The position numbers and the translations under genes are program-made. Below the pieces are notes generated by a model. That model made no database searches and was not told the DNA's origin. It saw only the letters and a list, made by a program, of their open reading frames with translations. 8,430 bases of DNA, taken from the IMG/VR virus record IMGVR_UViG_2684622619_000023. The stretch is one strand, 5' to 3'. The DNA comes from a virus. Lineage: Duplodnaviria; Heunggongvirae; Uroviricota; Caudoviricetes. Positions 963 to 8,430 of this stretch are shown here, in pieces (position 1 is the first letter of the stretch; every line of letters starts with the position of its first letter).

Positions 963-1029
963 GCTGCGGATCTAAGCGGTCATCGCAACGGTGAATCAGG
1001 TGGTTGCCGTATCGTTGTGTTGTTGCGAT

Positions 1030-1110
1030 GAATTTATTTAAAACTATAGTTGTTTTGTCGTCAACAACAAAAGTTGTTTTATTGGTTTTTTTAGATGTAA
1101 ATGGTTGTAT
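1030..1110 (-). promoter_or_regulatory. Candidate PL promoter with OL operator-like palindromes, directing leftward transcription into the 552-962 ORF, gam and bet
   Basis: On the minus strand: -35 TTGACG (plus 1059-1064), 17-nt spacer ACAAAACAACTATAGTT, -10 TTAAAT (plus 1036-1041). This closely mirrors the PR candidate (TTGACT, spacer AAAAACAACCATAGTTT, TAATCT). GTTGTT/AACAAC half-sites at 1049-1054, 1063-1068 and 1073-1078, and AAATGGTTGT at 1098-1108, are shared with the OR region. Confidence 0.45.
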
Positions 1111-1207: not shown

Positions 1208-1234
1208 AAAAGAAAACCCGGCACGGTGGCCGGG
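1208..1234 (-). terminator. Rho-independent terminator ending the leftward cI-cassette transcript
   Basis: Minus-strand RNA reads CCCGGC-CACCGU-GCCGGG (6-bp GC stem, 6-nt loop; plus 1217-1234) followed by UUUUCUUUU (plus 1208-1216). It begins 5 nt after the stop of the ASCH gene (1239-1241). Confidence 0.7.
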
Positions 1235-1238
1235 ATTC

Positions 1239-1616
1239 TTACGCAGGTAGGTAAAGATATGATTGTGGTGGCTTAATATTACTACCTAGAGCAGAGATAG
1301 GAATTGGTTCTTTATATCTTTCCACTTCACCAATTTTTATTGCGTAGGCCTTTTCTCTACCTGAATAATATGAGTCATAAAATTGCTTAGAAATACCTGC
1401 GTGTTTTTCCGTCTTTTTCCAAAGAGATTCCGGTTCGTCACTTAGTATTGATTCAATACGGAATTGACCAACAACTTTACCTAATGGCATCGTGGCATAA
1501 ATAACAACGGTGCTAATTTGCGGATTTTTGAATATACCTTTACGAAACTCGAACCGCTTTGTTCCGTTCAATATTTTTTCTGCAAACTCAGGCTTAATGG
1601 ATAATAAAACTTTCAT
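1239..1616 (-). CDS. ASCH-domain (PUA-like fold) protein, 125 aa; second gene of the AT-rich cassette
   Basis: N-terminus MKVLLSIKPEFAEKILNGTKRFEFRKG carries the ASCH GxKxxExR signature (G-T-K-R-F-E-F-R). Size and pattern are typical of standalone ASCH proteins. Overlaps the upstream gene by 23 nt (translational coupling). AT-rich compared with the flanking phage genes. Confidence 0.8.
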   Translation of the reverse strand: MKVLLSIKPEFAEKILNGTKRFEFRKGIFKNPQISTVVIYATMPLGKVVGQFRIESILSDEPESLWKKTEKHAGISKQFYDSYYSGREKAYAIKIGEVERYKEPIPISALGSNIKPPQSYLYLPA

Positions 1617-2667
1617 TTATCTTGCCTAACTCGATGATCTTTAAGAACTGCTCATTTGTGAGTTTAAAGTGACTCCATCGGAATGCACGCGAACCATTTA
1701 GCCCCACATGATCTATTAAAATAGCACGATTGGGTCTCTTTGGCAAAGACAGATTGTATGTGAATCTTATAATGAAAGGGTATCGACGTTCTTTATAGAT
1801 TTTTCTGAGTTCATCTTCAGAAAATACGCTAAAACGAATACAATAGTCTACAAAACTATCTTCGCTTAAAAATTCAGAAATATTTTTTACGCTCTCAACT
1901 ACACATAATGTACTGGCTACAGAACGATAGCGAGCTGGCCCTTTTTTGTCTCCGGTTCTATAGATGACAATGATATCTCCTCTTTTCATTCCCATCACAG
2001 AACGCATTCCACATATGTAAATTTTATGAATGCTGTTAGCATGGGATATATCTTTGACAATATCTGGTGATTCATTTACAAGTTTTGAATCAGGGAATAG
2101 TCTAGTGTGATATTCGGGATAAATCGCCAGTAAATATTTGTTGGCTCTTGATGTCATTATTCGAGGGTAATCTAATAAAATATCACCATAAGGCTCATGC
2201 AAAGACCTCGCATATACAAACTCTTTCCCGTTATGTGTTTCTTTTTCACCATGAATGTAAAATCCGTACGTTTGGAAAAGTTTTATTAGATGGACGTGTT
2301 TGTCGAAAACAGTAACATAAATATCATCAGATTTTGATGAAAATGCATGGTCAAACGCTTTTTTTAGAAATCGTTGTCCGCGAAGGGTGCCTTTAGATTC
2401 AAATTTGAATGTTCCTATCTTTAGATGACGTCCTGGTGGGAGCGCTGGATTAATGTCATTTGCATCATCATTTTCTTTTAGATACATAAAACCTTCGATT
2501 TTATGCTTGTCATCATAGAGCACATAAGCTGATTCTCCTTCTCTGGCTTTTTTTTCTAACCAAAGAGGAAACTCTTTATAATCTTTTTTTAAAGAGTCAA
2601 AAAATGGGTCATTGTGATCAAAATCAGAGAATTTCTCATATTTTAAAGTATCCATTAAGTTCTCCAT
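1594..2667 (-). CDS. Hypothetical two-domain protein, 357 aa: N-terminal GNAT-like acyltransferase-like region, C-terminal PUA-like (EVE/ASCH-type) beta-barrel-like region; first gene of the AT-rich cassette
   Basis: Long AT-rich ORF. N-terminal half has GNAT-like strand/helix patterns (AYVLYDDKHKIEGFMYLK; HLKIGTFKF; GTLRGQRFLKKAFDHA; DDIYVTVFDKHVHLIKLFQTYGFYIHGE). C-terminal half (IYICGMRSVMGMKRGDIIVIYRTGD...YRSVASTLCVVESV) resembles PUA-like barrels. The ATG at 2667-2665 has no good SD; the in-frame ATG at 2655-2653 is preceded by GGAG at 6-nt spacing, so the true start may be 2655 (353 aa). Domain calls are by eye and tentative. Confidence 0.8.
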   Translation of the reverse strand: MENLMDTLKYEKFSDFDHNDPFFDSLKKDYKEFPLWLEKKAREGESAYVLYDDKHKIEGFMYLKENDDANDINPALPPGRHLKIGTFKFESKGTLRGQRFLKKAFDHAFSSKSDDIYVTVFDKHVHLIKLFQTYGFYIHGEKETHNGKEFVYARSLHEPYGDILLDYPRIMTSRANKYLLAIYPEYHTRLFPDSKLVNESPDIVKDISHANSIHKIYICGMRSVMGMKRGDIIVIYRTGDKKGPARYRSVASTLCVVESVKNISEFLSEDSFVDYCIRFSVFSEDELRKIYKERRYPFIIRFTYNLSLPKRPNRAILIDHVGLNGSRAFRWSHFKLTNEQFLKIIELGKINESFIIH

Positions 2668-2735
2668 TCTAAAATGAATAATTAAGTTGTTTTACTGAAT
2701 GAGCACAATGCCCGGTTGATAATTTTTAATTGGTA

Positions 2736-3425
2736 CTATCCATGCTTCCTATACGTCTGCGGCATGCTCCCAATAACTTTCCCGAAGATAAACACCCGGT
2801 TCATCTCGTCTTTCTCGATTGGGTCCCACGGTGAGTAGCTCTTGTTATCAGAGATAACCAGCAGTTTATCCTTCATCATTTGCAGGCGCTTTACATGGGC
2901 TGTGTCGTCGTACAGAAACGCATAGATACCATCACCGTCGAAAGATTTAACCGTGATATCAACGAACAGCAGATCACCAGGTTCAATCGTTCCTGACATG
3001 CTGTCACCGCGTACGTTAATGATGCGGATATTTTCTGCCTTCCTGCCATCGAACATGTGACGAGCATCGTCAAACGAGTACTCAACCGAGCGTAGGACTT
3101 CTACAAACTCACGGTTGATGACACCCGGCCCGGCACTCACTTCTATATCAAGAACGTCAATCTTAAAGTATTTGGAATGGCTGACAGTTGGTTGTATTGG
3201 TTGCACTGTACTGTCTGACATATTTCCAACGCCAGAAGATAACCATTCTGCGCGCACACCCAAAGCGTTCGCGATCTCCACGATTTTAGTTGTTTGATTA
3301 GCTTTCCCTGTTTCGATTTTCTGAATAGCAGCTTGGCTAACCCCGACCAAATCCCCAAGCGCCTTTTGTGTAAGGCCTCGCGCTAATCTGGCTTCTTTAA
3401 GTCTTTCTGAGAGTGTTGTTTTCAT
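2736..3425 (-). CDS. cI: Phage CI-type repressor (XRE-family HTH N-domain + LexA-like S24 peptidase C-domain)
   Basis: 229-aa ORF. N-terminal HTH (LTQKALGDLVGVSQAAIQKIETGK). C-terminal S24 autopeptidase features (GDSMSGTIEPGDLLFVD with catalytic Ser; downstream HVKRL Lys). Divergently oriented from cro across an operator-rich intergenic region. Not lambda-cI-like in sequence, i.e. a different immunity type. Confidence 0.88.
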   Translation of the reverse strand: MKTTLSERLKEARLARGLTQKALGDLVGVSQAAIQKIETGKANQTTKIVEIANALGVRAEWLSSGVGNMSDSTVQPIQPTVSHSKYFKIDVLDIEVSAGPGVINREFVEVLRSVEYSFDDARHMFDGRKAENIRIINVRGDSMSGTIEPGDLLFVDITVKSFDGDGIYAFLYDDTAHVKRLQMMKDKLLVISDNKSYSPWDPIEKDEMNRVFIFGKVIGSMPQTYRKHG

Positions 3426-3529
3426 AGTTCAAATGTACAACCAAGGTTTTATTCCATCAAACGAAAATGGTTGTTGACTAAAAACAACCATAGTTTTAAT
3501 CTTGATTCAAATTAACCACGGAGGTTGTT
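3426..3529. promoter_or_regulatory. Immunity control region: OR operators with divergent PR (rightward to cro) and PRM (leftward to cI) candidates
   Basis: PR: TTGACT 3474-3479, 17-nt spacer, TAATCT 3497-3502, then GGAGG 3520-3524 and cro ATG at 3530. Perfect 9/9 inverted repeat ATGGTTGTT (3467-3475) / AACAACCAT (3483-3491) overlaps the PR -35. Additional half-sites ACAACCA at 3437-3443 and GGTTGTT at 3523-3529. PRM candidate on the minus strand: TTGATG, 17 nt, TACATT, ending about 6 nt before the cI ATG, so cI mRNA may be leaderless as in lambda. Confidence 0.6.
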
Positions 3530-3760
3530 ATGAACCCAGCTATTAAAACAGCGATCAATATCGTTGGTTCACAAAAGAAACTGGGCGCTGCTTGCGAAGT
3601 TTCACAGCAGGCCGTCTATAAGTGGCTTCACAACAAAGCAAAGGTATCCCCTGAACATGTCGGCAGCATTGTTACGGCTACTGGTGGAGTAGTGAAGGCA
3701 CACCAGATTCGCCCGGATCTTCCGAAGTTGTTTCCACACACCGAAAAGAACGCAGCTTAA
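3530..3760 (+). CDS. cro: Cro-like repressor, YdaS-type HTH regulator
   Basis: 76-aa ORF directly downstream of the PR candidate with a GGAGG RBS. HTH-like segment KKLGAACEVSQQAVYKWLHNK. Position and size as for cro; sequence resembles Rac-type YdaS/Cro regulators rather than lambda Cro (from memory). Confidence 0.8.
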   Translation: MNPAIKTAINIVGSQKKLGAACEVSQQAVYKWLHNKAKVSPEHVGSIVTATGGVVKAHQIRPDLPKLFPHTEKNAA

Positions 3761-3772
3761 ATTTCCATTTCA

Positions 3773-3785
3773 CGCTCTTTAACAA
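3773..3785 (+). promoter_or_regulatory. boxA-like element in the nutR position
   Basis: CGCTCTTTAACAA lies 13 nt after the cro stop. It matches the boxA consensus (lambda nut boxA CGCTCTTA; rrn boxA GCTCTTTAACAA). No convincing GC-rich boxB hairpin follows. Confidence 0.4.
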
Positions 3786-3829
3786 TAAGCAATCAACTTA
3801 ACAGTCAATTCAAACTAAAGGAGTCAATT

Positions 3830-4369
3830 ATGCAACCACTTACATACCAACAGACTAGCGGATTTAGCCCGACTGCGGTGATAAATCGTTCTCAAACAAA
3901 ACAGGTGCCAGGCCACGAAAAAATCCGTGATGCCGTCCGCGCCTGGTCGGCTGAAGATAATCAGGATGTCGTTGCCACACTCATTGTGAATGAGTATCGG
4001 GAGCAGGGCGGCGGCACCATCGATTTCCCTGATGATGTCAGCCGTGCACGCCAGAAGCTGTTCCGCTTCCTCGATAACAAATTCGATTCTGAAAAATACC
4101 GAAATAACGTGCGTGAACTGACCCCGGCAATTCTGGCGGTACTACCGCTGGAATATCGCGGTTACCTGGTTGAGCAGGATAGCTTTATGGCTAGGTTGGC
4201 TGAAATGGAAAAGGAACTCAGTGAGGCAAAACAGGCTGTCATTCTCAACGCACCACGCCACCAGAAACTGAAGGAAATTAGTGAAGGTATTGTGTCGATG
4301 TTTCGTGTGGACCCAGATCTGGCTGGTCCACTGATGGCGATGGTCACCACCATGCTGGGGGCAATATGA
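3830..4369 (+). CDS. YdaT-like protein occupying the cII position (function uncertain; regulator or toxin-like)
   Basis: 179-aa ORF with AAGGAG RBS 7 nt upstream. Motifs EYREQGGGTIDFP and LTPAILAVLPLEYR resemble what I recall of the Rac prophage YdaT family, which follows ydaS-type cro genes. Stop overlaps a downstream ATG (ATGA at 4366-4369). Confidence 0.6.
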   Translation: MQPLTYQQTSGFSPTAVINRSQTKQVPGHEKIRDAVRAWSAEDNQDVVATLIVNEYREQGGGTIDFPDDVSRARQKLFRFLDNKFDSEKYRNNVRELTPAILAVLPLEYRGYLVEQDSFMARLAEMEKELSEAKQAVILNAPRHQKLKEISEGIVSMFRVDPDLAGPLMAMVTTMLGAI

Positions 4370-4455
4370 CAGGTTCAGAAATGGCGAAAGCCGGTCTGCT
4401 GGAACAGAACCGACTTTCAGGTGCAAATCGTAACGCACTCATTGCGGGAGGAATT

Positions 4456-5320
4456 ATGGCAAACACTGCTGAGATATTCAATTTTCCAGTGCCGGATGTG
4501 GCACAAAAGGAGCCGCGCGTGGCAGATCTCGATGATGGTTATACGCGCATTGCAAATGAGTTGCTGGAAGCTGTGATGCTGGCCGGATTAACACAGCACC
4601 AGCTTCTGGTCTTCCTGGCTGTCATGCGCAAAACATATGGCTTTAATAAAAAACTGGATTGGGTGAGCAACGAGCAACTTTCCGAATTGACCGGGATATT
4701 GCCGCACAAGTGTTCTGCTGCAAAAAGCGTTCTGGTAAAGCGTGGGATTCTTATTCAGAGCGGGCGGAATACCGGCATTAATAATGTGGTCAGTGAATGG
4801 TCAACATTACCCGAATCAGGTAAGAAAAATAAAGTTTACCTGAAAGAGGTAAATTTACCTGAATCAGGTAAAAAAAGTTTACCCAAATCAGGTAAAGACG
4901 TTTACCCGAATCAGGTAAACACAAAAGACAAAATAACAAAAGACAATATAAAACCTTATTCGTCCGAGAATTCTGGCGAATCCTCTGACCAGCCAGAAAA
5001 CGACCTTCCTGTGGTGAAACCGGATGCTGCGATTCAGAGCGGCAGCAAGTGGGGGACAGCAGAAGACCTGACCGCCGCAGAGTGGATGTTTGANNNNNNN
5101 NNNNNNNNNNNNNNNNNNNNNNNNNNNNNNNNNNNNNNNNNNNTTCCGCTGGGCATGCCAGGACAACTTCTGGTCCGGTAACGTGCTAAGTCCGGCCAAA
5201 CTCCGTGACAAGTGGACCCAACTCGAAATCAACCGTAACAAGCAACAGGCTGGAGTGACAGCCGGAAAATCAAAACTGGACCTGACAAACACTGACTGGA
5301 TTTATGGGGTGGATTTATGA
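4456..5320 (+). CDS. O: Replication initiator protein O (lambda O-like); reading frame interrupted by a 50-nt run of N (5094-5143)
   Basis: ATG at 4456 with GGGAGG 5 nt upstream; N-terminus MANTAEIFNFPVPDVAQKEPRVADLDDGYTRIANELLEA parallels lambda O MTNTAKILNF...VADLDDGYARLSN. After the gap, the frame ending at 5320 gives ...FWSGNVLSPAKLRDKWTQLEINRNKQQAGVTAGKSKLDLTNTDWIYGVDL, matching the lambda O C-terminus. The in-frame ATG at 4366 is an alternative but less likely start. Confidence 0.88.
4807..4956. repeat. Origin of replication (ori-lambda-like) inside the O gene: five 17-bp iterons plus an AT-rich region
   Basis: Iterons TTACC(C/T)(G/A)AA(T/A)(C/G)AGGTAA at 4807-4823, 4836-4852 (degenerate), 4855-4871, 4879-4895 and 4902-4918, each with inverted ends TTACC/GGTAA. 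Followed by the A-rich stretch ACAAAAGACAAAATAACAAAAGACAATATAAAA (4920-4956). Same organisation as lambda ori within the O linker. Confidence 0.8.
5094..5143. other. Run of 50 N (assembly gap or masked bases) inside gene O
   Basis: Directly visible. The O reading frames before and after the run differ by one position, so 50 is not the true missing length. Confidence 0.99.
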
Positions 5321-6018
5321 AAAACATCGCCGCACAAATGGTTAACTTTGACTGTGAGCAGATGCGCCGGATCGCCAACAACATGCCGGAACAGTACGAC
5401 GAAAAGCCACAGGTACAGCAGGTAGCGCAGATCATCAACGGTGTGTTCAGGCAGTTACTGGCAACTTTCCCGGCGAGCCTGGCTAACCGTGACCAGAATG
5501 AACTGAACGAAATCCGCCGCCAGTGGGTTCTGGCTTTCCGGGAAAACGGGATCACCACAATGGAACAGGTTAACGCAGGAATGCGCGTAGCCCGTCGGCA
5601 GAATCGACCATTTCTGCCATCACCCGGGCAGTTTGTTGCATGGTGCCGGGAAGAAGCATCCGTTATCGCCGGACTGCCAAACGTCAGCGAGCTGGTTGAT
5701 ATGGTTTACGAGTATTGCCGGAAGCGTGGCCTGTATCCGGATGCAGAGTCTTATCCGTGGAAATCGAACGCGCATTACTGGTTGGTTACCAACTTGTACC
5801 AGAACATGCGGGCCAATGCGCTGACTGACGCGGAATTACGGCGCAAGGCTGCCGATGAACTGACCTGTATGACAGCGCGAATTAACCGTGGTGAGACGAT
5901 ACCTGAACCAGTAAAACAACTTCCTGTTATGGGCGGTAGACCTCTAAATCGTGCACAGGCTCTGGCGAAGATCGCAGAAATTAAAGCTAAGTTCGGACTG
6001 AAAGGAGCAAGTGTATGA
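5317..6018 (+). CDS. P: Replication protein P (DnaB helicase loader), lambda P-like
   Basis: 233-aa ORF MKNIAAQMVNFDCEQMRRIANNMPEQYDEKPQVQQVAQIING...KFGLKGASV, near-identical to my recollection of lambda P. ATG overlaps the O stop (ATGA at 5317-5320). Confidence 0.95.
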   Translation: MKNIAAQMVNFDCEQMRRIANNMPEQYDEKPQVQQVAQIINGVFRQLLATFPASLANRDQNELNEIRRQWVLAFRENGITTMEQVNAGMRVARRQNRPFLPSPGQFVAWCREEASVIAGLPNVSELVDMVYEYCRKRGLYPDAESYPWKSNAHYWLVTNLYQNMRANALTDAELRRKAADELTCMTARINRGETIPEPVKQLPVMGGRPLNRAQALAKIAEIKAKFGLKGASV

Positions 6019-6317
6019 CGGGCAAAGAGGCAATTATTCATTACCTGGGGACGCATAAGAGCTTCTGTGCACAGGACGTTGCCGCGGTAACAGGCGCAAC
6101 CGTAACCAGCATAAATCAGGCTGCGGCTAAAATGGCGCGGGCAGGAATCCTGGTCGTTGATGGTAAGGTCTGGCGAACGGTGTATTACCGGTTCGCTACC
6201 AGAGAAGAACGGGAAGGAAAGGTGAGCACGAATCTGATTTTTAAGGAGTGTCGCCAGAGTGCCGCGATGAAACGGGTATTGAGGGTATATAAAAGAACAT
6301 CAATGGGTACACAATGA
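6015..6317 (+). CDS. ren: Ren protein (lambda ren-like), divergent C-terminus
   Basis: 100-aa ORF MTGKEAIIHYLGTHKSFCAQDVAAVTGATVTSINQAAAKMARAGILVVDGKVWRTVYYRFATREEREGK... matches recalled lambda Ren. ATG overlaps the P stop (ATGA at 6015-6018). Confidence 0.9.
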   Translation: MTGKEAIIHYLGTHKSFCAQDVAAVTGATVTSINQAAAKMARAGILVVDGKVWRTVYYRFATREEREGKVSTNLIFKECRQSAAMKRVLRVYKRTSMGTQ

Positions 6318-6334
6318 TGAAACAGGTGAGTTGA

Positions 6335-6369
6335 GTTCAAACTGTAGTACAATTCTCTCCAGTTTGAAC
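6335..6369. repeat. Perfect 10-bp inverted repeat GTTCAAACTG (15-nt spacer) CAGTTTGAAC between ren and emrE
   Basis: Arms at 6335-6344 and 6360-6369 are exact reverse complements. Ends 1 nt before the emrE RBS (AGGAAAG, 6370-6376). Confidence 0.6.
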
Positions 6370-6384
6370 AGGAAAGAATATGTT

Positions 6385-6717
6385 ATGAACCCTTATATTT
6401 ATCTTGGTGGTGCAATACTTGCAGAGGTCATTGGTACAACCTTAATGAAGTTTTCAGAAGGTTTTACACGGTTATGGCCATCTGTTGGTACAATTATTTG
6501 TTATTGTGCATCATTCTGGTTATTAGCTCAGACGCTGGCTTATATTCCTACAGGGATTGCTTATGCTATCTGGTCAGGAGTCGGTATTGTCCTGATTAGC
6601 TTACTATCATGGGGGTTTTTCGGCCAACGGCTGGACCTGCCAGCCGTTATAGGCATGATGTTGATTTGTGCCGGTGTGTTGGTTATTAATTTATTGTCAC
6701 GAAGCACACCACATTAA
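6385..6717 (+). CDS. emrE: EmrE, small multidrug resistance (SMR) family efflux transporter, 110 aa
   Basis: From the ATG at 6385 (RBS AGGAAAG 6370-6376): MNPYIYLGGAILAEVIGTTLMKFSEGFTRLWPSVGTIICYCASFWLLAQTLAYIPTGIAYAIWSGVGIVLISLLSWGFFGQRLDLPAVIGMMLICAGVLVINLLSRSTPH, essentially the E. coli EmrE sequence as I recall it; four hydrophobic helices. The 18-codon upstream extension in the track (from 6331) is rejected. Confidence 0.95.
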   Translation: MNPYIYLGGAILAEVIGTTLMKFSEGFTRLWPSVGTIICYCASFWLLAQTLAYIPTGIAYAIWSGVGIVLISLLSWGFFGQRLDLPAVIGMMLICAGVLVINLLSRSTPH

Positions 6718-6747
6718 AAATAATTTCTTTTAAAAGACTGCAATATG

Positions 6748-6780
6748 GCGGTTCATATCTTTACATGGGCCGCTTTTGTT
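6748..6780 (+). terminator. Candidate intrinsic terminator downstream of emrE
   Basis: Stem GCGGTTCAT (6748-6756) / ATGGGCCGC (6765-6773), 9 bp including two G-U pairs, 8-nt loop, followed by TTTTGTT (6774-6780). Confidence 0.45.
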
Positions 6781-6961
6781 AATGTTTTTAGTTTTTGTGT
6801 ATTCTTTTGTGCCTTCAAGATTATTGCGTAAGCAAATTGCAATACGATTATTGTTGTATATTCAAGATAGTGTGATCGTAATTGTCTTTTTAAATAAAAA
6901 TTAAACAAAAATTATATCTCACCACTAAGGTTTATAAAAGCATAAGTTAGCAGGTGTCACC

Positions 6962-8430
6962 ATGAAAAAAGCCATAGCATATATGCGATTTTCATCACCA
7001 GGTCAGATGTCTGGCGACTCATTAAACCGACAGAGAAGACTTATTGCTGAATGGTTAAAGGTAAATAGTGATTATTATCTTGATACCATAACATATGAAG
7101 ATTTAGGATTAAGTGCATTCAAAGGAAAGCATGCACAATCAGGAGCTTTTTCGGAATTTTTAGATGCTATAGAGCATGGTTATATATTGCCAGGAACTAC
7201 ATTGTTAGTTGAAAGTCTGGACAGACTTTCAAGAGAAAAAGTCGGTGAAGCGATTGAACGTCTGAAATTGATTTTGAATCACGGTATTGATGTTATAACT
7301 CTTTGCGACAATACAGTCTATAATATTGACTCTTTGAATGAGCCATATTCATTAATAAAAGCCATACTTATAGCACAAAGGGCAAATGAAGAAAGCGAGA
7401 TAAAGTCAAGTCGGGTTAAATTATCATGGAAGAAAAAACGGCAGGATGCACTGGAATCAGGTACGATTATGACGGCGTCTTGTCCGAGATGGCTCTCCTT
7501 AGATGACAAAAGAACGGCTTTTGTTCCAGACCCCGACAGGGTGAAAACTATTGAGCTAATTTTTAAACTCAGGATGGAAAGGCGCTCATTGAATGCAATA
7601 GCCAAGTATTTAAATGATCATGCTGTAAAGAATTTCTCAGGAAAAGAAAGTGCATGGGGACCTTCTGTAATTGAAAAATTATTAGCGAATAAAGCTCTGA
7701 TAGGTATATGCGTACCTTCATATCGTGCAAGAGGGAAAGGGATAAGTGAAATCGCTGGCTATTATCCCAGAGTCATATCAGATGATTTGTTTTACGCTGT
7801 ACAGGAAATTCGGTTGGCACCTTTTGGTATTAGCAATAGTAGCAAGAATCCTATGCTAATAAATCTACTTCGAACAGTTATGAAGTGTGAGGCTTGTGGT
7901 AATACCATGATTGTTCATGCGGTATCTGGAAGTTTGCATGGCTATTATGTTTGTCCGATGAGAAGATTACATCGATGTGACAGGCCATCAATAAAGAGAG
8001 ATTTGGTTGATTATAATATCATTAATGAATTGCTTTTTAATTGTAGCAAAATTCAACCAGTTGAAAACAAGAAAGATGCTAATGAAACTTTAGAGTTAAA
8101 AATTATTGAGCTTCAGATGAAAATTAATAATTTAATCGTTGCATTGTCTGTCGCGCCTGAAGTTACCGCTATAGCAGAGAAAATAAGACTATTAGATAAG
8201 GAATTACGAAGGGCTTCGGTATCATTGAAAACTTTGAAGAGTAAAGGTGTAAATTCATTCAGTGATTTTTATGCTATTGACTTAACCAGTAAAAATGGAC
8301 GAGAGTTATGCCGTACACTTGCCTATAAAACATTCGAAAAAATCATAATTAATACGGATAATAAAACCTGTGATATCTATTTTATGAATGGCATTGTTTT
8401 TAAACACTATCCTTTAATGAAAGTAATATC
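6962..8430 (+). CDS. ybcK: Large serine recombinase (resolvase/invertase-type N-domain + recombinase domain + Cys-rich zinc-ribbon-like region), DLP12 ybcK-like; 3' end beyond the window
   Basis: ATG at 6962 with AGGTG 5 nt upstream. Frame is open for 489 codons to the window edge (my own translation; not in the track because no stop is reached). N-terminus MKKAIAYMRFSSPGQMSGDSLNRQRRLIAEW has the serine-recombinase catalytic motif; later CEACGNTMIVHAVSGSLHGYYVCPMRRLHRC is zinc-ribbon-like. AT-rich. The ren-emrE-recombinase order matches what I recall of E. coli DLP12. Confidence 0.88.
   Translation, partial: MKKAIAYMRFSSPGQMSGDSLNRQRRLIAEWLKVNSDYYLDTITYEDLGLSAFKGKHAQSGAFSEFLDAIEHGYILPGTTLLVESLDRLSREKVGEAIERLKLILNHGIDVITLCDNTVYNIDSLNEPYSLIKAILIAQRANEESEIKSSRVKLSWKKKRQDALESGTIMTASCPRWLSLDDKRTAFVPDPDRVKTIELIFKLRMERRSLNAIAKYLNDHAVKNFSGKESAWGPSVIEKLLANKALIGICVPSYRARGKGISEIAGYYPRVISDDLFYAVQEIRLAPFGISNSSKNPMLINLLRTVMKCEACGNTMIVHAVSGSLHGYYVCPMRRLHRCDRPSIKRDLVDYNIINELLFNCSKIQPVENKKDANETLELKIIELQMKINNLIVALSVAPEVTAIAEKIRLLDKELRRASVSLKTLKSKGVNSFSDFYAIDLTSKNGRELCRTLAYKTFEKIIINTDNKTCDIYFMNGIVFKHYPLMKVI

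Follow-up and report, generated by a model that had tools for sequence, protein, structure and literature searches.

The question raised by the immunity region of a virus in the class Caudoviricetes (IMG/VR record IMGVR_UViG_2684622619_000023; 8,430 nucleotides, all of which we refer to as the window) is what kind of system is encoded by two overlapping AT-rich genes that lie between the cI repressor gene and the candidate leftward promoter-operator PL/OL. An earlier reading, made from the letters of the window without database searches (the sequence-only reading), had proposed that the pair is a novel lysogen-expressed defence or toxin-antidote module. Our analysis showed that the cassette is an already catalogued kind of system and not a new one: it is almost certainly a GevAT module, which we equate by sequence comparison with the GNAT-EVE + ASCH operon class and with the PADLOC candidate system PDC-M11.

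The larger protein matched the PADLOC model PDC-M11A at 2.1e-133 over residues 6-356, and the smaller protein matched PDC-M11B at 6.8e-52 over residues 1-123. A nearly identical copy is present in the phage PhiR47_2 (GenBank PV340567.1, 2025), the DNA being 99.9% identical over 1651 bp and the proteins 100% identical, and that record annotates the matching genes as 'GevT toxin' and 'GevA antitoxin'. PMC13190303 credits the panel of temperate phages to which PhiR47_2 belongs to Brenes & Laub 2025. The '(PIN)-GNAT-EVE' proteins were described computationally by Bell, Wolf and Koonin 2020 (PMC7641849), who credited an earlier description by Iyer et al., and 'Gev' is presumably an abbreviation of GNAT-EVE. 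According to PMC7641849, a second PUA-like protein of the ASCH type is nearly always encoded in GNAT-EVE operons, an AAA_17 ATPase is often encoded there too, and the operon class is common in gammaproteobacterial prophages; a toxin-antitoxin function was predicted with aminoacyl-tRNA as a possible target, and no member had been experimentally characterised as of 2020. The cassette shares with this class the fusion of a GNAT to a PUA-like domain, the adjacent ASCH gene and the gammaproteobacterial prophage site, and the relatives that we found also match the class in their occasional AAA_17 gene and PIN-fused variants. The PIN domain and AAA_17 gene of some of these relatives are absent from the window copy; otherwise, nothing material differs.

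The two PADLOC matches contradict the earlier statement that the pair resembles no defence system that can be named, and the claim of novelty falls with the description of the class in 2020 (PMC7641849), its entry in PADLOC-DB as PDC-M11 and the name GevAT in the 2025 GenBank record. The proposed kind of function, toxin-antidote or defence, stands: it is supported by the candidate-defence models, by the 99.9% identical copy annotated as toxin and antitoxin, and by homologues in cargo hotspots and defence islands. A full-text literature search for GevT, GevA and GevAT found no phage paper, and PDC-M11 appeared in the searched literature only as a PADLOC match in a list of O157:H7 strains.

Profile and structure searches, which the sequence-only reading had suggested as a check, gave both proteins a recognisable domain content: the large protein, GevT, has an N-terminal GNAT acetyltransferase fold to which a PUA-like domain is fused C-terminally, and the small protein, GevA, is an ASCH protein (Pfam ASCH, 2.5e-8). 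The nearest GNATs to GevT are PaiA and N-alpha-acetyltransferases, and NCBIfam returned weak similarity to PaiA and PseH. Residues G97, R99, Y134 and E149 of the GNAT are invariant. The Pfam EVE model did not match the C-terminal domain of GevT, and among solved structures this domain matched an ASCH protein best; the EVE subfamily label was thus not reproduced. For this domain and for GevA alike, the closest solved relative is the ASCH protein of Zymomonas mobilis, ZmASCH (PDB 5GUQ/5GUS). The predicted structure of GevA is a globular ASCH domain of the ZmASCH type with a predicted local distance difference test (pLDDT) score of 95.5, and the protein has an invariant motif, G18-x-K20-x-x-E23-x-R25, together with invariant polar pocket residues. 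Because hhalign aligned GevA to the C-terminal domain of GevT over only 21 columns with a probability of 24%, we rejected GevA as a sequence paralogue of that domain; their likeness is structural and not demonstrable by sequence. GevA also matched NCBIfam NF008917 (PRK12279), the C-terminal 'unknown domain' of a '50S ribosomal protein L22/unknown domain fusion protein', at 2.8e-15, which is a Rosetta-stone hint of a tie between its ASCH subfamily and the ribosome or translation. Homologues of the two proteins carry the plain database names 'N-acetyltransferase' and 'ASCH domain-containing protein'.

The window is a lambdoid prophage immunity region with the order gam (180-476), a kil-like gene, PL/OL, the cassette and cI; beyond cI (2736-3425) follow a YdaS-type cro, a YdaT-type gene at the cII position, O, P, ren, emrE and a ybcK-like gene. 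The features on which the following paragraphs depend are these:

1028..1082, minus strand: PL/OL promoter-operator segment, which mirrors PR/OR
1208..1234, minus strand: intrinsic terminator of the cI operon (t_imm-like), conserved backbone common to phages with other cargo
1235..2735, minus strand: swappable cargo cassette proper, 1501 bp, GC 0.348
1239..1616, minus strand: gevA, a 125-aa free-standing ASCH domain
1594..1616, minus strand: dual-coding overlap of 23 nt between the 3' end of gevT and the 5' end of gevA
1594..2655, minus strand: gevT, 353 aa from its probable start, with a GNAT acetyltransferase (about 8-155) and a C-terminal PUA-like EVE/ASCH domain (about 177-357)
2656..2735, minus strand: cI-gevT spacer, which contains the gevT ribosome-binding site (GGAG at 2661-2664) and no terminator
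2736..3425, minus strand: cI-type repressor (HTH_3 + Peptidase_S24), first gene of the presumed lysogenic operon
3460..3512, plus strand: PR/OR, presumed source of the lysogenic transcript, with the divergent PRM predicted in the 3426-3529 intergenic region

The listing of open reading frames agrees with the earlier description of two overlapping minus-strand genes of 357 and 125 aa directly downstream of cI on the same strand; mechanically, these frames run at 1594..2667 and 1239..1616. Because a GGAG lies 5 nt upstream, most homologues begin there and RefSeq gives 353 aa, the start of gevT is probably the second ATG, at window position 2655. The spacer between cI and the open reading frame is 68 nt long, or 80 nt when gevT starts at 2655.

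The boundaries of the cassette could be placed exactly because the phages PhiR68_2, PhiR70_1 and Perceval align with the same backbone and have unrelated genes in the slot. Homology with these sister phages breaks off immediately past the terminator hairpin at one edge and immediately past the cI stop codon at the opposite edge; therefore, the cargo comprises 1235-2735, and the terminator belongs to the backbone. The GC content of this segment is 0.348, compared to 0.467 for cI, 0.501 for the left flank and 0.488 for 3426-6317, in agreement with the statement that the cassette is more AT-rich than its neighbours. As had been proposed, the cassette is horizontally acquired cargo in a slot equivalent to that of rexAB. 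As for the slots of the sister phages, that of PhiR70_1 (L091, 1860-3382) encodes proteins of 136, 195 and 167 aa, that of Perceval (L092, 1828-3378) a 340-aa protein and a 168-aa protein annotated as transmembrane, and that of PhiR68_2 (L093, 3582-5037) proteins of 341 and 149 aa. None of these slot proteins had a significant match in Pfam or PADLOC, with one 167-aa protein borderline in PADLOC (E ~1e-3).

The cassette itself is widespread in Escherichia coli. It is present in eight sequenced coliphage records with 99.3-99.9% identity, and in 275 of 5426 complete E. coli genomes in essentially unchanged form, many of them O157:H7 (e.g., EC4115, TW14359 and SS17). In public data, at least 1000 contigs carry it. 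In O157:H7 EC4115, it is 100% identical to the window although the prophage is defective, its P gene being split by IS1203. That prophage (L094, 12376-41651) is integrated beside mlrA (yehV) and has no stx between the Q antiterminator and the lysis genes.

The signals around the two genes are consistent with expression in the lysogen. As the sequence-only reading had it, the spacer between cI and the cassette is free of terminators: no terminator-like site was found in its 68 nt, and it folds no better than shuffled sequence (z +1.26). Downstream of gevA, the hairpin at 1217-1234 with its U tract has a predicted folding free energy of -19.2 kcal/mol (z -4.76), which none of 200 shuffles equalled, and it is located approximately 135 nt before PL/OL. 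The strong terminator that had been noted ahead of PL/OL is thus real, but it is part of the phage backbone and not of the cassette. The candidate PL/OL was also substantiated, because minus-strand positions 1028-1082 align nearly base for base with PR/OR at 3460-3512 (common core GTTGTTGAC..AAAACAAC.ATAGTTTTAA) and contain a perfect palindrome, AACAAC-N4-GTTGTT, at 1063-1078, for which the chance expectation is 0.01; the PR/OR region in turn has a palindrome at 3467-3491, repeats and the same alignment. Because gevT and gevA lie on the cI strand behind a terminator-free spacer, with precise junctions and a strong shared terminator after gevA, we infer that cI, gevT and gevA are co-transcribed in the lysogen from the predicted PRM. 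Minus-strand matches to the promoter consensus were found at 1746..1718, upstream of gevA, and at 1628..1601. Because promoter-like sites occur in the whole window at the level of shuffled sequence (16 found versus 17.9 expected), no conclusion is drawn from these internal matches.

An Rfam scan of the window returned nothing credible, only sub-threshold eukaryotic miRNA and snoRNA models. On the other side of the terminator, no N-like open reading frame is present on the minus strand between PL and the kil-like gene (940-1035). Two stem-loops (-25.2 kcal/mol, z -2.3) are predicted in the opening ~95 nt of the presumed PL transcript; they had no Rfam match, and one of them has a perfect 10-bp stem (980-989 / 1022-1031). 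They could be a put-like RNA antitermination element, as in HK022.

To survey the pair across species, one genome per species was scanned, which yielded 215 loci, of which 80 were kept. They are distributed over Gamma-, Beta-, Alpha- and Deltaproteobacteria, Bacteroidota, Firmicutes, Verrucomicrobia, Acidobacteria and Campylobacterota at 45-74% identity. The ASCH gene is adjacent and directly downstream in 77 of the 80 loci, and the overlap measures exactly 23 nt in 72 of them (87 of 95 loci overall), ranging from Enterobacterales to Lactobacillus and including the Lactobacillus prophage Lj965, the Salmonella phage SopEPhi and variants fused to TIR or PIN domains. The overlap is dual-coding, that is, the same bases encode the C-terminus of GevT and the invariant MKVLLSIK of GevA. 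In the Vibrio / Photobacterium loci L013, L017 and L022, the ASCH gene is on the opposite strand, 0.4-2.6 kb off and without overlap. Between the two proteins, GevA is the more conserved (55.3 vs 50.8% identity; higher in 62 of 77 pairs, Wilcoxon p ~1e-8).

An exhaustive search for the family gave 1421 clusters (50% identity) at E<=1e-3 and 172 at E<=1e-30. Besides the core of ~350 aa, four architectures were found: TIR + core (P0244, TIR_2 at 1.7e-13), PIN-like + core (~500 aa), a different ASCH + PIN-like + core (~620 aa), and PIN-like + core with a GevA-type ASCH domain fused C-terminally (P0306; hhalign 99.6%, E 2e-24). The N-terminal ASCH domain of the ~620-aa variants was tested and is not of the GevA type. 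Because P0306 is a natural GevT-GevA fusion, GevA probably acts in the same complex as GevT. Additions of the TIR and PIN-like kind are characteristic of immune effectors. The Methanothermobacter phage psiM100 (record 8698-9534) encodes a distant homologue of GevT (27% identity, E 9e-15) inside the 'inserted fragment IFa'; therefore, the GevT family is movable cargo in archaeal viruses too.

The neighbourhoods of homologues showed that the gevTA pair moves between phage cargo hotspots and defence islands. In P2/186-like Klebsiella prophages, the homologous pair is located downstream of CI and upstream of int; a 355-aa open reading frame between CI and the GevT homologue was considered as a GevT paralogue, but it is unrelated and has no family match. 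In Lj965, the pair lies beside the terminase genes, and in SopEPhi it lies between gpA and the portal gene, an interval that we take to be the tin/old hotspot position of P2. In Vibrio cholerae (L087-L090, 1-16700), a GevAT homologue with an AAA_17/18 kinase-like third gene is part of the cargo of a Tn7-like CRISPR-associated transposon (TniQ-Csy2-Csy3-Csy4), next to a 480-aa SNIPE/T5orf172 protein, umuDC and a 1270-aa SIR2_2 protein, and together these genes make up a compact defence island carried by the transposon. The 80 loci gave 149 nearest neighbours, in which the commonest family was an AAA_17/18 P-loop kinase-like gene (~10 loci); other neighbours matched MADS, ThsA, GajB, type I/III restriction-modification, SoFic, further PADLOC candidates, S24 repressors, integrases and resolvases. 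A survey of this kind had been suggested together with the original proposal, and the recurrence of the pair at prophage immunity genes, phage cargo hotspots and the Vibrio defence island supports the kind of function that it named.

Because of the TIR/PIN-like fusions, the sites in cargo hotspots and defence islands and the neighbours that match defence models, we favour a conflict role. We consider it probable, with some reserve, that GevAT has a toxin-antitoxin or exclusion function, and the best explanation overall, towards which we lean with restraint, is a lysogen-expressed toxin-antitoxin/exclusion module in the cI operon that would act by acetylation. PRM transcripts made in the lysogen would pass through cI into gevT-gevA and stop at 1217-1234, and translational coupling at the 23-nt overlap would fix the GevT:GevA ratio. 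GevA would keep GevT inactive within a complex until a superinfecting phage upsets this control and frees GevT, which would then acetylate a nucleic-acid-linked target chosen by its PUA-like domain, most plausibly a modified or aminoacylated tRNA; translation would halt, and the infection would abort. GNAT toxins that acetylate aminoacyl-tRNA are established. Because of this precedent and of the proposal in PMC7641849, a tRNA-type target for GevT can be put forward, if only tentatively.

Several points weigh against this explanation. The toxin and antitoxin labels are the wording of a GenBank annotation, and the present analysis covered sequences and predicted structures. At the sequence level, no relationship between GevT and the tRNA-acetylating GNAT toxins was detected, and in our reading of the alignment the canonical general-acid Tyr of PaiA is aligned to a Phe in GevT. 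That GevA is better conserved than GevT is unlike a typical fast-evolving antitoxin and suggests that GevA may have an activity or ligand of its own, and where a TIR or PIN-like domain is fused, killing may be due to an effector other than the GNAT. Furthermore, an alternative and earlier proposal by Iyer et al., cited in PMC7641849, is acetylation of DNA bases. The high conservation of GevA and the TIR/PIN-like variants together argue against the simplest picture of a labile antitoxin and a GNAT-only effector. Because of this conservation, the invariant polar pocket, the ZmASCH likeness common to both PUA-like domains and the natural fusion in cis, we also considered, as a rather unlikely alternative, that GevA is no passive antitoxin but a reader or enzyme of the ASCH type with a conserved ligand of its own. 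It would control GevT either by competition for the modified nucleic acid that the PUA-like domain of GevT recognises or by acting on that nucleic acid; the TIR or PIN-like modules would then, at the same low likelihood, be alternative effectors added in relatives. To our knowledge, such a 'reader versus reader' control logic is undescribed for toxin-antitoxin systems, and in the literature consulted we found no description of a mechanism in which a GNAT acetyltransferase is guided by a modified-base reader domain.

In the DNA-directed alternative, GevT would acetylate a DNA base, or the PUA-like domains would recognise modified phage DNA for GevT to mark or attack. The ASCH protein would supply or compete for binding to the modified DNA, which would make the pair a modification-dependent restriction or anti-restriction system rather than a translation toxin. 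We regard both parts of this explanation as unlikely: the E. coli cassette has no nuclease, the nearest GNATs act on protein or small-molecule amines and not on bases, and the closest solved relative of both PUA-like domains, ZmASCH, is reported to be an RNase. The PIN-like fusions also point to RNA, as argued in PMC7641849 too. Another rival, in which the antidote action of GevA would be enzymatic, with the acetyl group added by GevT cleaved off by a YqfB-like amidohydrolase activity, appears improbable to us. It is modelled on DarG, which reverses the action of DarT, and YqfB is an ASCH protein with N4-acetylcytidine amidohydrolase activity.

GevAT could also be a prophage addiction module whose main effect is to keep the prophage or its cargo slot in place through the death of cells from which it is lost, with exclusion absent or incidental. 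The toxin/antitoxin annotation and the tight coupling of the two genes fit such a role, as do the position beside the prophage immunity gene and the 100% conservation of the cassette in defective O157:H7 prophages such as that of EC4115 with IS1203 in P. It is nevertheless doubtful to us, since homologues reside in non-prophage defence-type islands (transposon cargo with SNIPE-domain and SIR2 genes), neighbours include restriction-modification, Thoeris, Gabija and MADS components, TIR/PIN-like fusions are typical of immune effectors, and GevA is not fast-evolving and bears no mark of a labile antitoxin. Finally, the plain database names and the weak NCBIfam similarity to PaiA and PseH would suit an ordinary metabolic or housekeeping acetyltransferase pair without a conflict role. 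We rejected this as very improbable on account of a GC content of 35% in a 50% GC phage, the exact swap junctions, the patchy cross-phylum distribution at about 45-75% identity, the cargo hotspots and defence islands, the TIR/PIN-like fusions, the PADLOC candidate status and the toxin/antitoxin annotation.

GevAT was also compared with characterised systems. With the type II toxin-antitoxin systems that pair a GNAT with a ribbon-helix-helix protein (TacAT, AtaRT, ItaRT and KacAT), it shares a GNAT-fold toxin in a two-gene operon and, if our leading hypothesis for GevT holds, it would share the block of translation by acetylation. GevT was tested for sequence membership in the TacT, AtaT, ItaT and KacT toxin family, and no relationship was detected. 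The antitoxin of these systems is a ribbon-helix-helix DNA binder encoded upstream of the toxin, whereas GevA is an ASCH domain encoded downstream of it, and GevT carries an extra PUA-like domain that these toxins lack. Like lambda RexAB, the cassette occupies the slot between cI and PL on the cI strand with a terminator before PL, as the sequence-only reading had pointed out, and both would be lysogen-expressed exclusion cargo. Neither protein is Rex-like, as had also been stated: in PADLOC only the PDC-M11 models matched, and the RexAB models did not. RexB is a polytopic membrane protein, whereas GevA is a soluble globular ASCH domain, and the chemistry is entirely different; membership in RexAB was therefore rejected. 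The single-chain PIN-like-GevT-GevA protein P0306 resembles the fused toxin-antitoxin sensor CapRel-SJ46 and by this analogy suggests that the 'antitoxin' can serve for autoinhibition or sensing in cis. CapRel-SJ46 differs in that its domains are unrelated and that GevT and GevA of E. coli are two separate proteins. ZmASCH (5GUQ/5GUS), reportedly a single-stranded-RNA-specific ribonuclease, differs from GevA in being stand-alone with no known partner toxin.

Elsewhere in the window, the gene at the cro position (3530-3760) matched Pfam YdaS_toxin at 1.7e-16 and the gene at the cII position (3830-4369) matched YdaT_toxin at 9.5e-30; here, 'toxin' is a family label for cro/cII-type regulators of the Rac prophage and is not evidence for a further pair of toxins. 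The 50 consecutive N at 5094-5143 within the replication gene O, approximately where lambda-type iteron origins are located, look like masking rather than biology. A second AT-rich block (6318-8430, GC 0.357) follows ren and comprises emrE (6331-6717, an SMR efflux pump) and a ybcK-like serine recombinase gene, the open frame of which has its first ATG near 6962 and continues past the end of the window, as in DLP12 and the EC4115 prophage.

From sequence alone, the rexAB-equivalent slot was thus correctly read as holding toxin-antitoxin or defence cargo. The unrelated genes in the same slot of the sister phages are more likely than the gevTA cassette to be novel lysogen-expressed cargo and are the better lead for novelty. 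If GevAT excludes phages, it would affect competition among prophages and the choice of therapeutic phages for pathogens such as these O157:H7 strains.

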